From Escherichia coli (GTDB taxonomy: Bacteria; Pseudomonadota; Gammaproteobacteria; Enterobacterales; Enterobacteriaceae), in assembly GCF_051903065.1 (NCBI RefSeq), contig NZ_CP178438.1: a stretch of 64,000 bases of DNA; one strand, written 5' to 3'. Position numbers and translations under genes: made by a program. Numbering within the stretch: position 1 is the first letter of the stretch; every line of letters starts with the position of its first letter. Below are positions 5,061 through 26,921 of the stretch, one piece after another. The notes under the pieces were generated by a model. The model was not told where the DNA came from and did not search any database. It saw only the letters and a program-made list of their open reading frames with translations.

Positions 5061-5177
<117 letters not shown>

Positions 5178-22156: not shown

Positions 22157-22872
22157 TGCGTTTTTACCGGCCTTTGGGGCGCATCTCGGCGCTCACCTTT
22201 GACCTGGATGATACCCTTTACGATAACCGTCCGGTGATTTTGCGCACCGAGCGAGAGGCGCTTACCTTTGTGCAAAATTATCATCCGGCGCTGCGCAGCT
22301 TCCAGAATGAAGATCTGCAACGCCTGCGCCAGGCGGTACGGGAAGCGGAACCCGAGATTTATCACGACGTGACGCGTTGGCGTTTTCGTTCGATTGAACA
22401 AGCGATGCTCGACGCCGGGCTGAGTGCCGAAGAAGCCAGTGCAGGCGCACACGCAGCAATGATTAACTTTGCCAAATGGCGCAGCCGAATCGACGTCCCG
22501 CAGCAAACTCACGACACCTTAAAACAGCTGGCGAAGAAATGGCCGCTGGTGGCGATCACCAACGGTAACGCCCAGCCGGAACTGTTTGGTTTGGGGGATT
22601 ATTTTGAGTTTGTGCTGCGCGCTGGCCCGCACGGGCGCTCAAAACCGTTCAGCGATATGTACTTTTTGGCTGCGGAAAAACTCAACGTGCCGATCGGCGA
22701 GATCTTACATGTTGGGGACGATCTCACCACTGACGTGGGTGGGGCAATTCGCAGCGGAATGCAGGCCTGTTGGATCAGACCGGAAAATGGCGATCTGATG
22801 CAAACCTGGGACAGCCGTTTACTGCCGCATCTGGAAATTTCCCGGTTGGCATCTCTGACCTCGCTGATATAA
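22156..22872 (+). CDS. yigB: HAD-superfamily phosphatase YigB, 238 aa
   Basis: HAD motif I (FDLDDTL) near the N-terminus; immediately follows xerC. Confidence 0.85.
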
Positions 22873-22881
22873 TCAGCAAAT

Positions 22882-22897
22882 CTGTATATATACCCAG
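22882..22897. promoter_or_regulatory. LexA (SOS) box upstream of uvrD
   Basis: ctgtatatatacccag matches the CTG-N10-CAG SOS box consensus, about 60 bp upstream of the uvrD ATG. Confidence 0.75.
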
Positions 22898-22955
22898 CTT
22901 TTTGGCGGAGGGCGTTGCGCTTCTCCGCCCAACCTATTTTTACGCGGCGGTGCCA

Positions 22956-25118
22956 ATGGACGTTTCTTACCTGCTCGACAGCCTTAATGACAAACAGCGC
23001 GAAGCGGTGGCCGCGCCACGCAGCAACCTTCTGGTGCTGGCGGGCGCGGGCAGTGGTAAGACGCGCGTACTGGTGCATCGTATCGCCTGGCTGATGAGCG
23101 TGGAAAACTGCTCGCCATACTCGATTATGGCGGTGACGTTTACCAACAAAGCGGCGGCGGAGATGCGTCATCGTATCGGGCAACTGATGGGCACCAGCCA
23201 GGGCGGCATGTGGGTCGGCACCTTCCACGGGCTGGCGCACCGCCTGCTGCGTGCGCACCATATGGACGCCAATCTGCCGCAGGATTTCCAGATCCTAGAC
23301 AGTGAAGACCAGCTACGCCTGCTTAAGCGTCTGATCAAAGCCATGAACCTCGACGAGAAGCAGTGGCCGCCGCGCCAGGCAATGTGGTACATCAACAGCC
23401 AGAAAGATGAAGGCCTGCGTCCGCATCATATTCAAAGCTACGGTAATCCGGTGGAGCAGACCTGGCAGAAGGTGTATCAGGCGTATCAGGAAGCGTGTGA
23501 CCGCGCGGGCCTGGTGGACTTCGCCGAGCTGCTGCTGCGCGCTCACGAGTTGTGGCTTAACAAGCCGCATATCCTGCAACACTACCGCGAACGTTTTACC
23601 AATATCCTGGTGGACGAATTCCAGGATACCAACAACATTCAGTACGCGTGGATCCGCCTGCTGGCGGGCGACACCGGCAAAGTGATGATCGTCGGTGATG
23701 ACGACCAGTCAATCTACGGCTGGCGCGGGGCGCAGGTGGAGAATATTCAGCGTTTCCTCAATGATTTCCCCGGTGCCGAAACTATCCGTCTGGAGCAGAA
23801 CTATCGTTCTACCAGTAACATTCTGAGCGCCGCGAACGCCCTGATTGAAAACAACAACGGGCGTCTGGGTAAAAAACTGTGGACCGATGGCGCGGACGGT
23901 GAGCCTATTTCCCTCTATTGCGCTTTTAACGAACTCGATGAAGCGCGTTTTGTGGTTAACCGCATCAAAACCTGGCAGGACAACGGTGGGGCGCTCGCCG
24001 AGTGCGCCATTCTCTACCGCAGCAACGCCCAGTCGCGTGTACTGGAAGAAGCACTGTTGCAGGCAAGTATGCCGTACCGTATTTACGGCGGGATGCGATT
24101 CTTCGAACGCCAGGAAATCAAAGATGCGCTCTCGTATCTGCGCCTGATTGCCAACCGCAACGACGACGCGGCCTTTGAGCGTGTGGTGAATACGCCAACG
24201 CGGGGTATTGGTGACCGGACGCTGGACGTGGTACGTCAGACATCGCGCGATCGCCAGTTAACACTCTGGCAGGCATGTCGTGAGCTGTTGCAGGAAAAAG
24301 CGCTCGCCGGGCGAGCTGCCAGCGCCTTGCAGCGATTTATGGAATTAATCGACGCCTTAACGCAAGAAACTGCCGATATGCCGCTGCATGTACAGACTGA
24401 CCGGGTAATTAAAGACTCCGGCCTGCGCACCATGTACGAGCAGGAGAAGGGCGAAAAAGGCCAGACGCGTATCGAAAACTTAGAGGAACTGGTGACGGCA
24501 ACGCGCCAGTTCAGCTACAACGAAGAAGATGAAGATTTAATGCCGCTGCAGGCGTTCCTCTCCCATGCGGCACTGGAAGCGGGCGAGGGGCAGGCGGATA
24601 CCTGGCAGGACGCGGTGCAGTTGATGACGCTACACTCGGCGAAAGGGCTGGAGTTCCCGCAGGTGTTTATCGTCGGTATGGAAGAGGGCATGTTCCCAAG
24701 CCAGATGTCGCTGGATGAAGGCGGTCGTCTGGAAGAAGAACGCCGTCTGGCCTACGTTGGCGTAACCCGTGCGATGCAGAAACTGACGCTGACCTACGCG
24801 GAAACTCGCCGTCTGTATGGCAAAGAGGTTTACCATCGCCCGTCGCGCTTTATCGGCGAGCTGCCGGAAGAGTGTGTGGAAGAGGTGCGCCTGCGCGCCA
24901 CGGTAAGCCGCCCGGTCAGCCATCAGCGTATGGGTACGCCGATGGTCGAGAACGACAGCGGCTACAAGCTCGGCCAGCGTGTACGCCACGCTAAGTTTGG
25001 TGAAGGCACTATCGTCAATATGGAAGGCAGCGGCGAGCATAGCCGTTTGCAGGTGGCATTCCAGGGCCAGGGTATTAAATGGCTGGTGGCGGCTTACGCC
25101 CGGCTGGAGACGGTATAA
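22956..25118 (+). CDS. uvrD: DNA helicase II, 720 aa
   Basis: Start trimmed to ATG giving MDVSYLLDSLNDKQREAVAAP...; Walker A (GAGSGKT); the track ORF extends upstream through the LexA box. Confidence 0.9.
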   Translation: MDVSYLLDSLNDKQREAVAAPRSNLLVLAGAGSGKTRVLVHRIAWLMSVENCSPYSIMAVTFTNKAAAEMRHRIGQLMGTSQGGMWVGTFHGLAHRLLRAHHMDANLPQDFQILDSEDQLRLLKRLIKAMNLDEKQWPPRQAMWYINSQKDEGLRPHHIQSYGNPVEQTWQKVYQAYQEACDRAGLVDFAELLLRAHELWLNKPHILQHYRERFTNILVDEFQDTNNIQYAWIRLLAGDTGKVMIVGDDDQSIYGWRGAQVENIQRFLNDFPGAETIRLEQNYRSTSNILSAANALIENNNGRLGKKLWTDGADGEPISLYCAFNELDEARFVVNRIKTWQDNGGALAECAILYRSNAQSRVLEEALLQASMPYRIYGGMRFFERQEIKDALSYLRLIANRNDDAAFERVVNTPTRGIGDRTLDVVRQTSRDRQLTLWQACRELLQEKALAGRAASALQRFMELIDALTQETADMPLHVQTDRVIKDSGLRTMYEQEKGEKGQTRIENLEELVTATRQFSYNEEDEDLMPLQAFLSHAALEAGEGQADTWQDAVQLMTLHSAKGLEFPQVFIVGMEEGMFPSQMSLDEGGRLEEERRLAYVGVTRAMQKLTLTYAETRRLYGKEVYHRPSRFIGELPEECVEEVRLRATVSRPVSHQRMGTPMVENDSGYKLGQRVRHAKFGEGTIVNMEGSGEHSRLQVAFQGQGIKWLVAAYARLETV

Positions 25119-25132
25119 TTTACGATCACGGT

Positions 25133-25163
25133 GCCGGATGCGGTGCGCCACACCGCATCCGGC
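25133..25163. repeat. REP-like perfect palindrome between uvrD and the downstream gene
   Basis: gccggatgcggtgcgccacaccgcatccggc. Confidence 0.7.
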
Positions 25164-25172
25164 ATCAGCACC

Positions 25173-26090
25173 TTACTTAGCGCACTTCTTCACATCAATA
25201 TTCCAGTTAGCACCAGACGCAACCTGATGTTTCTGCGCGAAATTATCCATATTCAGCGCCACGGAAACATTCAATAAGCTGTTCAGATACACCATCGGCT
25301 GACCTTCCGGCACATCGCCGAAGCTTGCGACATACGGCATTTTCCCTTCGTATTTTTGCTGGGAACCTTCGGAAATGGTTACACACAACGTGTCGTTGAG
25401 TTTGATTCCTGCCTGATTCAGCAACTCGTCGCTGATATTGCTCCAGACGTTGCCGTACTGAATATCGAGAATCGGGATATTGCCCTTCACTTCACCTTTT
25501 GTTGCTTTGGCTTTCTGATAAGAAAGTTCGACAACTTTTGCCGGAAGCTCTGGCCCCACCTGTTCGAACGTGATCGCTCCGGAAGCCAGGCGTGCACCGG
25601 TGTAGGCATACACGTCACGACCGTGGAAGGTATATGACTTTTCGGAACCTTTCAGGCGGTTGGTTTTTTCATCGATTTGCCGGACGCTCTCAATACCCAG
25701 CGATTCCGCCACCAAAGTGAGCGTACCGTTATCCGGTGAAACGAAGTATTGACCGTTTTTGGTTTTCAGCACTACCGATTTACGGTCTGTACCTACACCT
25801 GGATCGACCACGCTAACAAACACCGAACCTTGTGGCCAATAACTGGCGGTCTGATACAGGCGGTAAGCGCCTTCCCAGATGTTATACGGTGGAATTTCGT
25901 GTGTTAAATCAAAGATTTTAAGATTATGGTCAACACCGAATGCGACCCCTTTCATCGCCGAGACGGCACCATCTTTCAGGCTAAAATCAGTTTGTAAAAT
26001 CAAAGCGTTATCCGCATAAGCGGATGATGATCCCAGACACGTTAATAAAAATAACGTTGCGAGCGTTTTTTCATTTTTGTTTCCCTTCAT
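25173..26090 (-). CDS. Signal-peptide-bearing SAM hydroxide adenosyltransferase family protein (DUF62, fluorinase/chlorinase-like), 305 aa
   Basis: N-terminal signal peptide (LATLFLLTCLGSSSAYA); family motifs TDFSLKDGAVSAMKGV, VDPGVGTDRKSV, SPDNGTLTLV, FHGRDVYAYTGARLASG, YGNVWSNI align with fluorinase FlA as I recall it. Confidence 0.75.
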   Translation of the reverse strand: MKGNKNEKTLATLFLLTCLGSSSAYADNALILQTDFSLKDGAVSAMKGVAFGVDHNLKIFDLTHEIPPYNIWEGAYRLYQTASYWPQGSVFVSVVDPGVGTDRKSVVLKTKNGQYFVSPDNGTLTLVAESLGIESVRQIDEKTNRLKGSEKSYTFHGRDVYAYTGARLASGAITFEQVGPELPAKVVELSYQKAKATKGEVKGNIPILDIQYGNVWSNISDELLNQAGIKLNDTLCVTISEGSQQKYEGKMPYVASFGDVPEGQPMVYLNSLLNVSVALNMDNFAQKHQVASGANWNIDVKKCAK

Positions 26091-26156: not shown

Positions 26157-26921
26157 TTAACCTTTCCGCTCGACGGAAATCATGGTGACAAAAGGATAGC
26201 GTTGCCACGGGATTGCCCCGCCTTTCATATACATATGTGAAATCGTGCCATCAAGATTAAGCAGCTGCTCAACGTTCAGTTTCGCTTTGGCATAACAGGC
26301 AAAATCATAAAAATTTGTCGCCTGCTGGCTCAACAAAAACACGGCATTCCCATGTTTATTAATCCCAACACCGTTACGAATTTTACGTGAGGCGACGTTG
26401 GGATGAATACGCGGATTAATTACACTGTTTTCCATCAACATTGGCCCTGACTGCACCGCAAACTGAATCTCTTTACTGGTTTTGAAGGCATCCAGACGAA
26501 CGATGCCGACTTTATCTCCCGCGACATAAAACACGCCGCCAGGACTGATAAAGAAATTCCCTTCACCTGAAGCGAGATTTAACGCCACCTTCTGCTGACC
26601 GTTTTCGATGTACAAACCGAGCGGCGCATAGCTTTCATCATAGATGCCGCCGTTCATCGCCATCTGCACCTGACCGTGACTATTAATATCCGCCAGCAGA
26701 GCATGTAACGTTCCCCACGCTTCGCCATTGGCTTTTTGCCAGTACATTTTCACCCGCTCTGTTTGAGGATTAACGGTATACGCCTGTACGGTCAGCGTTG
26801 GATCTGAGAGTGCGCAATCATCAGCGGCAACAGCAAACAAGGGAAGTAAGGTGAGAGTGAGAAAAATCCGTTTGAGATTCAAGGTGATCATTCCTTTACC
26901 AATGAGTAGCCGATGCGCCAT
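26157..26921 (-). CDS. yigE: YigE (DUF2233 family), 254 aa, secreted
   Basis: Signal peptide; position between uvrD and corA. Confidence 0.8.
   Translation of the reverse strand: MAHRLLIGKGMITLNLKRIFLTLTLLPLFAVAADDCALSDPTLTVQAYTVNPQTERVKMYWQKANGEAWGTLHALLADINSHGQVQMAMNGGIYDESYAPLGLYIENGQQKVALNLASGEGNFFISPGGVFYVAGDKVGIVRLDAFKTSKEIQFAVQSGPMLMENSVINPRIHPNVASRKIRNGVGINKHGNAVFLLSQQATNFYDFACYAKAKLNVEQLLNLDGTISHMYMKGGAIPWQRYPFVTMISVERKG

Follow-up and report, generated by a model that had tools for sequence, protein, structure and literature searches.

A predicted exported DUF62 protein encoded between uvrD and yigE in Escherichia coli, its relationship to Helicobacter pylori HP0709, and a start-site lesion in one allele

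The 64,000-nucleotide stretch of Escherichia coli DNA analyzed here (contig NZ_CP178438.1 of assembly GCF_051903065.1; hereafter, the window) contains on its minus strand, at 25173..26090, an open reading frame (ORF) of 305 aa plus a stop codon (RefSeq WP_047624403.1), flanked by uvrD on the plus strand, which ends at 25118, and by yigE on the minus strand (26157..26921). An earlier note made from the sequence alone had described this ORF as an extra gene between uvrD and yigE and had assigned its product to the S-adenosyl-L-methionine (SAM) hydroxide adenosyltransferase (DUF62) family. The ORF is present as described and is absent from K-12, in which the uvrD–yigE junction is a 146-bp spacer that contains a repetitive extragenic palindromic (REP) element and no gene remnant; every family motif quoted in the note is found in the translation. 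The N-terminal domain model PF01887 (SAM_HAT_N), on which the note had staked its assignment, matches residues 31–179 strongly (Pfam; E=5e-53, model positions 2–145 of 145; 25554..26000, minus strand), and PF20257 (SAM_HAT_C) matches residues 203–296 (Pfam; E=2.7e-18, model positions 1–83 of 84; 25203..25484, minus strand).

A sequence search of the PDB with the window protein retrieved the Thermotoga maritima DUF62 protein 2zbu (E=6e-44), the chlorinases ClA1 and SalL (E of about 5e-36 to 7e-36) and PH0463 (E=1e-33), with matches also to MJ1651 and the fluorinases. The AlphaFold 2 (AF2) model of the mature protein has a predicted local distance difference test score (pLDDT) of 96.5 and a predicted template modeling score (pTM) of 0.90, and Foldseek aligns it to 2zbu with template modeling (TM) scores of 0.87/0.92 and to PH0463 with scores of 0.82/0.89; superposition on 2zbu, SalL, ClA1, FlA and PH0463 gave TM scores of 0.82–0.92 overall, and the model is that of a two-domain fluorinase-like fold. 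The two domain matches, the predicted fold and the catalytic triad described below bear out the assignment, and the window protein belongs to the DUF62 family. The gene is already catalogued at this level: the RefSeq product name, "SAM hydrolase/SAM-dependent halogenase family protein", goes as far as the family, and older records label the product "acetolactate synthase". We found no functional study of the E. coli gene in the literature searched.

Members of this family divide by their active sites. DUF62 hydrolases have a strictly conserved, water-activating Asp-Arg-His triad (D68/R75/H127 in PH0463; PMC4859513, PMC10491745), whereas the halogenases lack this triad and hold their halide through Y70/G131 in SalL or T80/S158 in FlA. 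The sequences used for PH0463 and FlA agree with those of 1wu8 and 1rqp, respectively, and both were aligned with the window protein. Asp96 (25803..25805), Arg103 (25782..25784) and His156 (25623..25625; all minus strand) align with Asp68, Arg75 and His127 of PH0463, in columns that hold Y72/T79/Y130 in SalL and Y77/T84/Y157 in FlA, and the positions that form the halide site (SalL Y70; FlA T80/S158) are filled by Val94, Val99 and Gly157. The comparison of SAM-binding residues that the note had proposed shows canonical ribose- and adenine-binding residues (D35, D209, N214, S271 and N280 in window numbering), of which D35 and N214 are the equivalents of FlA D16 and N215. Two family motifs are present as variants, PDNGT for PxNGL (Thr for Leu) and ILDIQYGN for IDxxFGN (Tyr for Phe). 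Given the triad and the absence of the halide-site residues, the alignment classes the window protein as a hydrolase-type DUF62 protein and not a halogenase. Halogenase identity was rejected on these same grounds, and the score against the fluorinase model TIGR04507 is 84 bits, compared with a cut-off of 400. Scores against the NCBIfam equivalogs for the archaeal and Thermus (R)-SAM hydrolases also fall below their cut-offs (131.5 bits against 350 for NF058624; 114.4 against 470 for NF053629); a substrate identity is therefore not automatically transferable, and we file the protein at family level. Among signal-peptide-bearing relatives the triad is widely retained (D in 122/127, R in 117/127, H in 106/127), and we found no active-site column that separates exported from cytoplasmic near relatives, so that both forms probably use the same chemistry.

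The N-terminus of the window allele, MKGNKNEKTLATLFLLTCLGSSSAYA (26013..26090, minus strand), is predicted to be a Sec signal peptide cleaved by signal peptidase I at AYA↓DN, with a positive n-region, a 12-residue hydrophobic core and A-x-A at positions −3/−1; the segment is kept in orthologs and relatives. Signal-peptide calls were made with a hand rule and a hydropathy scan, looking for a positive n-region, a hydrophobic core of at least 10 residues, small residues at −3/−1 and no lipobox. The canonical 300-aa E. coli product begins MKKTLATLFLLTCLGS(S/P)SAYA↓DNALILQTDFSLK, with two Lys residues and Ala at −3 and −1, and its layout, MKK-TLATLFLLTCLG-SSSAYA↓DN, shows all of these features; the H. 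pylori counterparts of the cleavage site are VHA↓DN or VYA↓DN. The first β-strand of the catalytic domain starts 4–5 residues past the predicted cleavage site, at the point where cytoplasmic homologs have their N-terminus. The clear signal peptide that the note had claimed is thus borne out by canonical n-, h- and c-regions, the A-x-A site and an extension kept in all close relatives. We rejected a lipoprotein anchored at Cys18: LLTC is not a lipobox because Thr occupies position −1, where Ala, Gly or Ser is needed, and the Cys is not kept in H. acinonychis or in some H. pylori strains.

A hydrophobic N-terminal extension is found in 80/80 of the best species-level relatives in the genome collection. 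These belong to the Proteobacteria, Bacteroidota, Verrucomicrobiota, Synergistota, Firmicutes, Fusobacteriota and Thermotogota and include Aeromonas, Edwardsiella, Pasteurellaceae, Thorsellia, Neisseriales, Chitinophaga, Verrucomicrobia, Synergistetes, Tissierellia, Fusobacteria, Thermotogae and Planctomycetes. We also sampled the 150 nearest representatives of clusters formed at 50% identity, of which 79 are full-length; signal or lipoprotein peptides, several with clear lipoboxes, are present in 47 of the 79, and another 31 begin directly at the domain. The DUF62 and halogenase members that have been studied (PH0463, MJ1651, StDUF62, SalL and FlA) are all cytoplasmic, and the statement in the earlier note that the family is normally cytoplasmic holds for them but not for the branch sampled here. 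As judged from their N-termini, exported DUF62 proteins are a large unstudied subgroup and not an oddity of E. coli. A single origin of export was considered and rejected: a neighbor-joining tree of the cluster representatives mixes both forms, with about 10 changes of state, and some entries scored as having no signal peptide are truncated ORFs.

The window protein also carries a pair of Cys residues, Cys236 (25383..25385, minus strand) and Cys303 (25182..25184, minus strand), that occur together in 40/40 members of the proteobacterial exported subclade, never singly, and that are restricted to members bearing signal peptides. In the AF2 model, strand 208–215 (numbered from the start of the mature protein) contains one of them, and the other comes just after the last strand. 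This pattern of conservation suggests a periplasmic disulfide. Sec export of the window protein is supported indirectly by the canonical signal peptide, its retention across phyla and the Cys pair. The cytoplasmic location that belongs to the (R)-SAM hydrolase equivalogs is not what we predict for this group, since a signal peptide is called in all close relatives.

The allele in the window differs from nearly all other E. coli alleles, which encode 300 aa and start MKKTLATLF; beside these, the first 8 residues of the 305-aa product are atypical. In ST131, O157:H7 and H. pylori the leader consists of the Shine-Dalgarno sequence AAGGGA, 7 nt, and then ATG-A7-CG, whereas the window has ATG-A6-CG, a 1-nt deletion in the A run at 26066..26071 (minus strand) that is evident from the leader alignment and from copy length (978 vs 979 bp); every other E. 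coli copy listed is 1 nt longer than the window copy. The canonical start codon (26072..26074, minus strand) is consequently out of frame here, and this ATG, which the Shine-Dalgarno sequence (26082..26087, minus strand) serves, now encodes a 10-codon peptide, MKKRSQRYFY, followed by a stop. The long ORF is open solely from the ATG at 26090, which overlaps the Shine-Dalgarno sequence (codons 2–3 of the 305-aa ORF) and has none of its own, so that expression is probably reduced and the window allele is probably poorly translated. A sequencing error in the A run was rejected: precisely this 305-aa product has been recorded from 185 contigs, which identifies it as the allele of a lineage and not an error of assembly. 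A 306-aa variant (P0001) with a single additional Lys codon in this part of the sequence is read in the same upstream-ATG frame and points to length variation in the A run.

For the strain of the window, this lesion invites the explanation that the gene is a decaying or silenced allele, in which the ORF has been uncoupled from its ribosome-binding site, little or no protein is made and the 305-aa product is an artifact of ORF calling. We regard this as a serious possibility, somewhat short of even odds. The shortened A run, the 10-codon peptide now encoded from the Shine-Dalgarno-served ATG, the lack of a ribosome-binding site proper to the upstream ATG and the great majority of 300-aa alleles all speak for it; the rest of the ORF, however, is intact and 98–99% identical to functional-looking alleles, its presence on 185 contigs makes it a stable lineage allele, the altered N-terminus keeps the look of a signal peptide, the 306-aa variant shares its frame in a way that points to a run of variable length, and some product could arise from leaky initiation or slippage.

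Across the species the gene is accessory. It is carried by 2413/5426 complete E. coli genomes (44%), O25b:H4-ST131 and O157:H7 among them, and K-12 and more than half of the genomes are without it; nor, as noted above, did we find a functional study of it. The note had said that presence at this position in all E. coli, K-12 included, with a characterized function would count against its reading. A 2.8-kb query spanning uvrD, the gene, yigE and corA has a full-length match in 2293/5426 complete genomes; in the remaining genomes, K-12 derivatives included, the flanks of the query alone match. All E. coli copies are chromosomal save for one place on a plasmid, and there is one per genome, with a single record showing two places. 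A genome of an Escherichia cryptic clade and an enterobacterial contig (L006) also bear the gene beside uvrD. We envisage that the gene has long been resident at the uvrD locus of the Escherichia lineage and would later have been lost from K-12-like lineages.

By far the closest proteins outside E. coli and Shigella are those of H. pylori and H. acinonychis, grouped in a cluster of 2579 members and 87–89% identical to the E. coli protein over 300 aa. In H. pylori the gene is known as HP0709/jhp0648 (UniProt O25413); HP0708 lies on one side of it and the homB/HP0710 locus on the other, with uvrA, hopE and rsmH nearby. HP0709 is 88–89% identical to the E. coli protein over the full length and 91% identical over the mature protein; at the DNA level identity is 83.4%, falling to 65% at third codon positions. 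The homology extends no farther than about −30 to +8 nt from the coding sequence (H. pylori CP079344.1, locus L003 6001–6903, compared with window 25173–26090): the two share the leader "CATCAGATAA...GGAAA...ATGAAAAAAACG", and the similarity stops approximately 8 nt past the stop codon. HP0709 thus resembles the window gene as an ortholog with a 300-aa product, the 5′ leader and Shine-Dalgarno sequence, the signal-peptide layout and the Cys pair, and differs from it in belonging to the core genome of H. pylori, where its neighborhood is unrelated (uvrA-hopE-rsmH-HP0708-HP0709-homB). In each host the gene has an intermediate GC content: 47% in E. coli, compared with 52% for the window and 58% for uvrD, and 43% in H. 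pylori, compared with 38% for the locus.

The next relatives are those of Aeromonas (72–76% identity) and of Edwardsiella, Pasteurellaceae and Neisseriales (66–75%). A neighbor-joining tree recovers (Edwardsiella,(L006,(Escherichia,Helicobacter))) with bootstraps of 82/84/78. L006 is a metagenome contig (Logan ERR11042197_79294) on which an 88%-identical ortholog (216–1118) is convergent with uvrD; the 3′ end of its uvrD is approximately 84% identical in DNA to that of E. coli, a 70-aa hydrophobic ORF lies between uvrD and the ortholog, and there is no yigE-like sequence upstream. The uvrD synteny in L006 argues for vertical descent within the Enterobacteriaceae and, together with the nesting of Helicobacter in the enterobacterial clade, for transfer from an Escherichia-like donor. 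The tree and synteny therefore indicate that HP0709 was acquired by the ancestor of H. pylori and H. acinonychis from such a donor; a segment of approximately 940 bp with just this gene would have moved and become HP0709. We found no paper describing this relationship in the literature searched.

HP0709 itself has surfaced in several data sets. A gastric-cancer genome-wide association study (GWAS) flagged it (D/N at codon 49), and conflicting annotation blocked interpretation; some pipelines name the H. pylori gene "adenosyl-chloride synthase" or "salL". In a serology panel HP0709 was seroreactive in patients, with antibodies that vary with disease stage, and it appears on a proteome list of H. 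pylori outer membrane vesicles (OMVs); the OMV listing and the patient seroreactivity lend weak support to its export. In a biofilm transcriptome of H. pylori SS1, "salL", which we take as the HP0709 ortholog, rose 2.9-fold alongside the methionine permease gene metI.

Family, fold, triad, distribution, the start-site lesion and the relationship to HP0709 are established by the observations above, and upon them we infer export, the disulfide, the substrate and a physiological role. The DUF62 protein would be exported by Sec, cleaved after AYA and folded in the periplasm, where it would probably form a trimer, as is usual for the family, and would probably be stabilized by a Cys236–Cys303 disulfide. 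By analogy with PH0463 and StDUF62, Asp96, Arg103 and His156 would activate a water molecule for attack on C5′ of SAM, or of a very close sulfonium analog, that reaches the periplasm by diffusion through porins; the products, adenosine and L-methionine, would be taken up by existing nucleoside and methionine transporters. On this analogy the protein would most likely serve to split exogenous SAM in the periplasm, giving adenosine and methionine that the cell can import. H. pylori requires exogenous methionine and relies on purine salvage, and a scavenging role would therefore suit it; these auxotrophies, the biofilm rise of salL and metI and the adjacency to deoB described below support scavenging weakly. 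The explanation that we favor joins these parts: an exported hydrolase-type DUF62 protein that cleaves SAM in the periplasm for scavenging, encoded by an old gene of the uvrD locus that was transferred to Helicobacter and that is represented in the window by a poorly translated allele. We assign it a probability of about 0.5.

Several points weigh against this explanation. The window protein scores far below the (R)-SAM hydrolase equivalog cut-offs and is a family member, not an equivalog. We found no enzyme assay or localization experiment for the window protein or HP0709 in the searchable literature, and the OMV list also holds ribosomal proteins, so that a place on it is no proof of export. 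The co-occurrence of the two Cys residues may stem from one ancestral gain in one clade, and the grouping of Escherichia with Helicobacter is backed by a bootstrap of just 78%. Neither a conserved neighbor among transporter, nucleoside or methionine genes nor a riboswitch for SAM or purines backs the scavenging role. Salt at physiological levels strongly inhibits StDUF62, a characterized bacterial member, and the authors of that work question whether hydrolyzing SAM is what the enzyme does in the cell. Extracellular SAM, moreover, is unstable.

One alternative is an exported protein of the same fold with another substrate or purpose, to which we give about a one-in-four chance. Such a protein might act on another 5′-substituted adenosine or sulfonium compound (decay products or analogs of SAM, or a toxic nucleoside), might make extracellular adenosine that dampens host immunity, as AdsA of Staphylococcus aureus does by different chemistry, or might transfer the adenosyl group to chloride in the chloride-rich stomach or gut. 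It would account for scores well below the equivalog cut-offs and for a set of residues (K42, D35, N265, N209 and Tyr for Phe at 207, in the numbering of the 300-aa product; add 5 for window numbering) whose conservation is higher among exported relatives than among cytoplasmic ones; the HP0709 alleles tied to gastric-cancer risk and the stage-dependent antibodies hint at host interaction, and the "adenosyl-chloride synthase" label would fit the chloride option. Against these stand the replacement of SalL Y70 and FlA T80/S158 by Val94, Val99 and Gly157 with the full hydrolase triad in place, literature reports of DUF62 hydrolases without halogenation activity, and the canonical state of D35, D209, N214, S271 and N280. 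Of the two readings offered in the note, the likeness of the active site to that of cytoplasmic relatives, as read from the alignment, favors periplasmic scavenging over a different substrate. Far less probable still is a cytoplasmic "repair" hydrolase for (R)-SAM like the archaeal and Salinispora enzymes, with an N-terminal hydrophobic segment that does not work as a signal peptide: all characterized members are cytoplasmic, SAM is an intracellular cofactor and cytoplasmic relatives reach 52% identity (P0128), but the extension has all three signal-peptide regions and the A-x-A site, is followed by no in-frame Met (the lone alternative start, TTG at Leu30, is unsupported by annotated homologs), stays hydrophobic in every close relative despite sequence drift, with clear lipoboxes in several, and accompanies a Cys pair seen only in signal-peptide-bearing members.

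Comparison with known systems places the predicted exported hydrolase closest to the DUF62/(R)-SAM hydrolases PH0463 (1wu8, 2wr8), MJ1651 (2f4n, 22uy), T. maritima 2zbu, StDUF62, SaciSAMH and HvSAMH. With these the window protein shares the two-domain fold (TM 0.82–0.92), PF01887 and PF20257, the Asp-Arg-His triad and approximately 31–35% identity, as well as the ribose-binding Asp in TDF(G/S), a PDNG sequence near PxNGL and the ILDIQYGN variant of IDxxFGN. It is unlike them in its predicted cleavable signal peptide, its Cys pair and its scores below the NCBIfam equivalog cut-offs; the characterized enzymes are cytoplasmic and are proposed to clear epimerized SAM within the cell, whereas the SAM pool of the window protein would be extracellular. 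With SalL, ClA1/ClA2 and FlA it shares the fold and the adenosine-binding residues at 22–30% identity, but it lacks their halide-site residues (Val94, Val99 and Gly157 occupy these positions), has the water-activating triad where they have Tyr/Thr/Tyr, and lacks the loop insertion of FlA. UshA, CpdB, NadN and e(P4) are periplasmic nucleotide-scavenging enzymes, and as a functional analogy the window protein would be, like them, a Sec-exported hydrolase that makes importable pieces from a non-importable adenine-nucleoside derivative; its fold is unrelated to theirs, and SN2 displacement at the sulfonium C5′ would take the place of phosphoester hydrolysis.

The physiological role of the DUF62 SAM hydrolases is disputed, and their biochemistry has all been done on cytoplasmic members with an intracellular SAM pool assumed. 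The exported branch spans at least seven phyla; among its members are a core gene of H. pylori and a gene carried by 44% of complete E. coli genomes, and such a branch implies a substrate pool outside the cytoplasm. What is new here is this unstudied exported branch, the link to HP0709 and the start-site lesion in the window. The question that exported DUF62 proteins raise is open to direct test in two tractable organisms, E. coli and H. pylori; the near-identity of the genes of these two is a clear case of a gene crossing between phyla to enter the core genome of H. pylori, and the link to E. coli offers a rational, testable annotation for the GWAS-flagged HP0709. We speculate further, and tentatively, that exported DUF62 proteins are a widespread, unrecognized class of periplasmic or surface SAM-cleaving enzymes that harvest adenosine and methionine, or make extracellular adenosine, from environmental or host SAM, and that a gene of this class passed from a gut bacterium akin to Escherichia to the H. 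pylori ancestor, where it would have been fixed by feeding methionine and purine auxotrophies and where its alleles would now track gastric-cancer risk; as a whole this picture is rather doubtful.

We examined the gene neighborhoods of the family by clustering the ORFs that flank the DUF62 gene in 85 loci and naming neighbors in Haemophilus paracuniculus, Bibersteinia, Thorsellia, Edwardsiella, a Neisseriales metagenome-assembled genome (MAG) and a Desulfobacterales MAG. No gene partner recurs across lineages among the 85 loci; the clusters that are shared are generic ABC ATPases and LysR regulators, and the neighbors named at the sampled loci are xseA, sbcB, fldB, rhtC/recQ and tpx. In three related Neisseriales/Burkholderiales MAGs (L020, L022 and L038), deoB, which encodes a phosphopentomutase of nucleoside catabolism, is convergent with the exported DUF62 gene and lies 55–185 nt downstream of it; this adjacency is the sole hint at nucleoside metabolism that the neighborhoods provide. 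Scans of 25 diverse loci at Rfam gathering thresholds detected no riboswitch or leader RNA near the gene, and no tRNA lies beside the H. pylori copy. We rejected a phage or defense origin, as neither the DUF62 gene nor yigE has a PADLOC or PHROGs match. The ortholog of Edwardsiella piscicida (L065 5183–8682) is placed between rhtC and recQ, which we take to lie a few kb from uvrD-corA on the K-12 map; the DUF62 gene, on this basis, holds different slots of one chromosomal district in different Enterobacterales.

In the window, the upstream neighbor yigE (26157..26921, minus strand) is 66 nt away on the same strand and encodes an NAGPA/PF09992 phosphodiester glycosidase with a signal peptide of its own. 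GC content is 47% in both yigE and the DUF62 gene (approximately 51% at third codon positions) compared with 58% in uvrD (65% at third positions). With 66 nt between them on one strand, the two genes may be co-transcribed as an operon or may both have come from a foreign source; a consensus scan for a promoter or terminator between them gave nothing above background. Adjacency to yigE is confined to Escherichia. On the other side, the mechanically listed uvrD ORF (22770–25118, plus strand; 782 aa) reaches back to a TTG at 22770, whereas the RefSeq uvrD gene is 2163 nt long (720 aa) and starts approximately 186 nt downstream; the longer form is an artifact of ORF listing and not a feature.

Between the convergent stop codons of uvrD and the DUF62 gene lies a REP-like perfect hairpin (25132..25164, assigned to no strand; folding and motif count) with 14-nt arms, a free energy of −33 kcal/mol and a z-score of −5. 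The earlier note had reported a REP-like palindrome upstream of the gene; the palindrome is there, but it is 3′ of the gene and upstream in plus-strand coordinates alone. The element is an extragenic GC-rich palindrome that contains the core GCCGGATGCGG and recurs, as REP sequences do, and it is likely a terminator or an element that stabilizes 3′ ends. The core occurs 11 times in the window, compared with 2.1 expected. Further copies lie at 5071, 5164, 53168, 53259 and other sites, with 5071/5164 and 53168/53259 forming close inverted pairs, and they are probably additional REP elements or bacterial interspersed mosaic elements (BIMEs).

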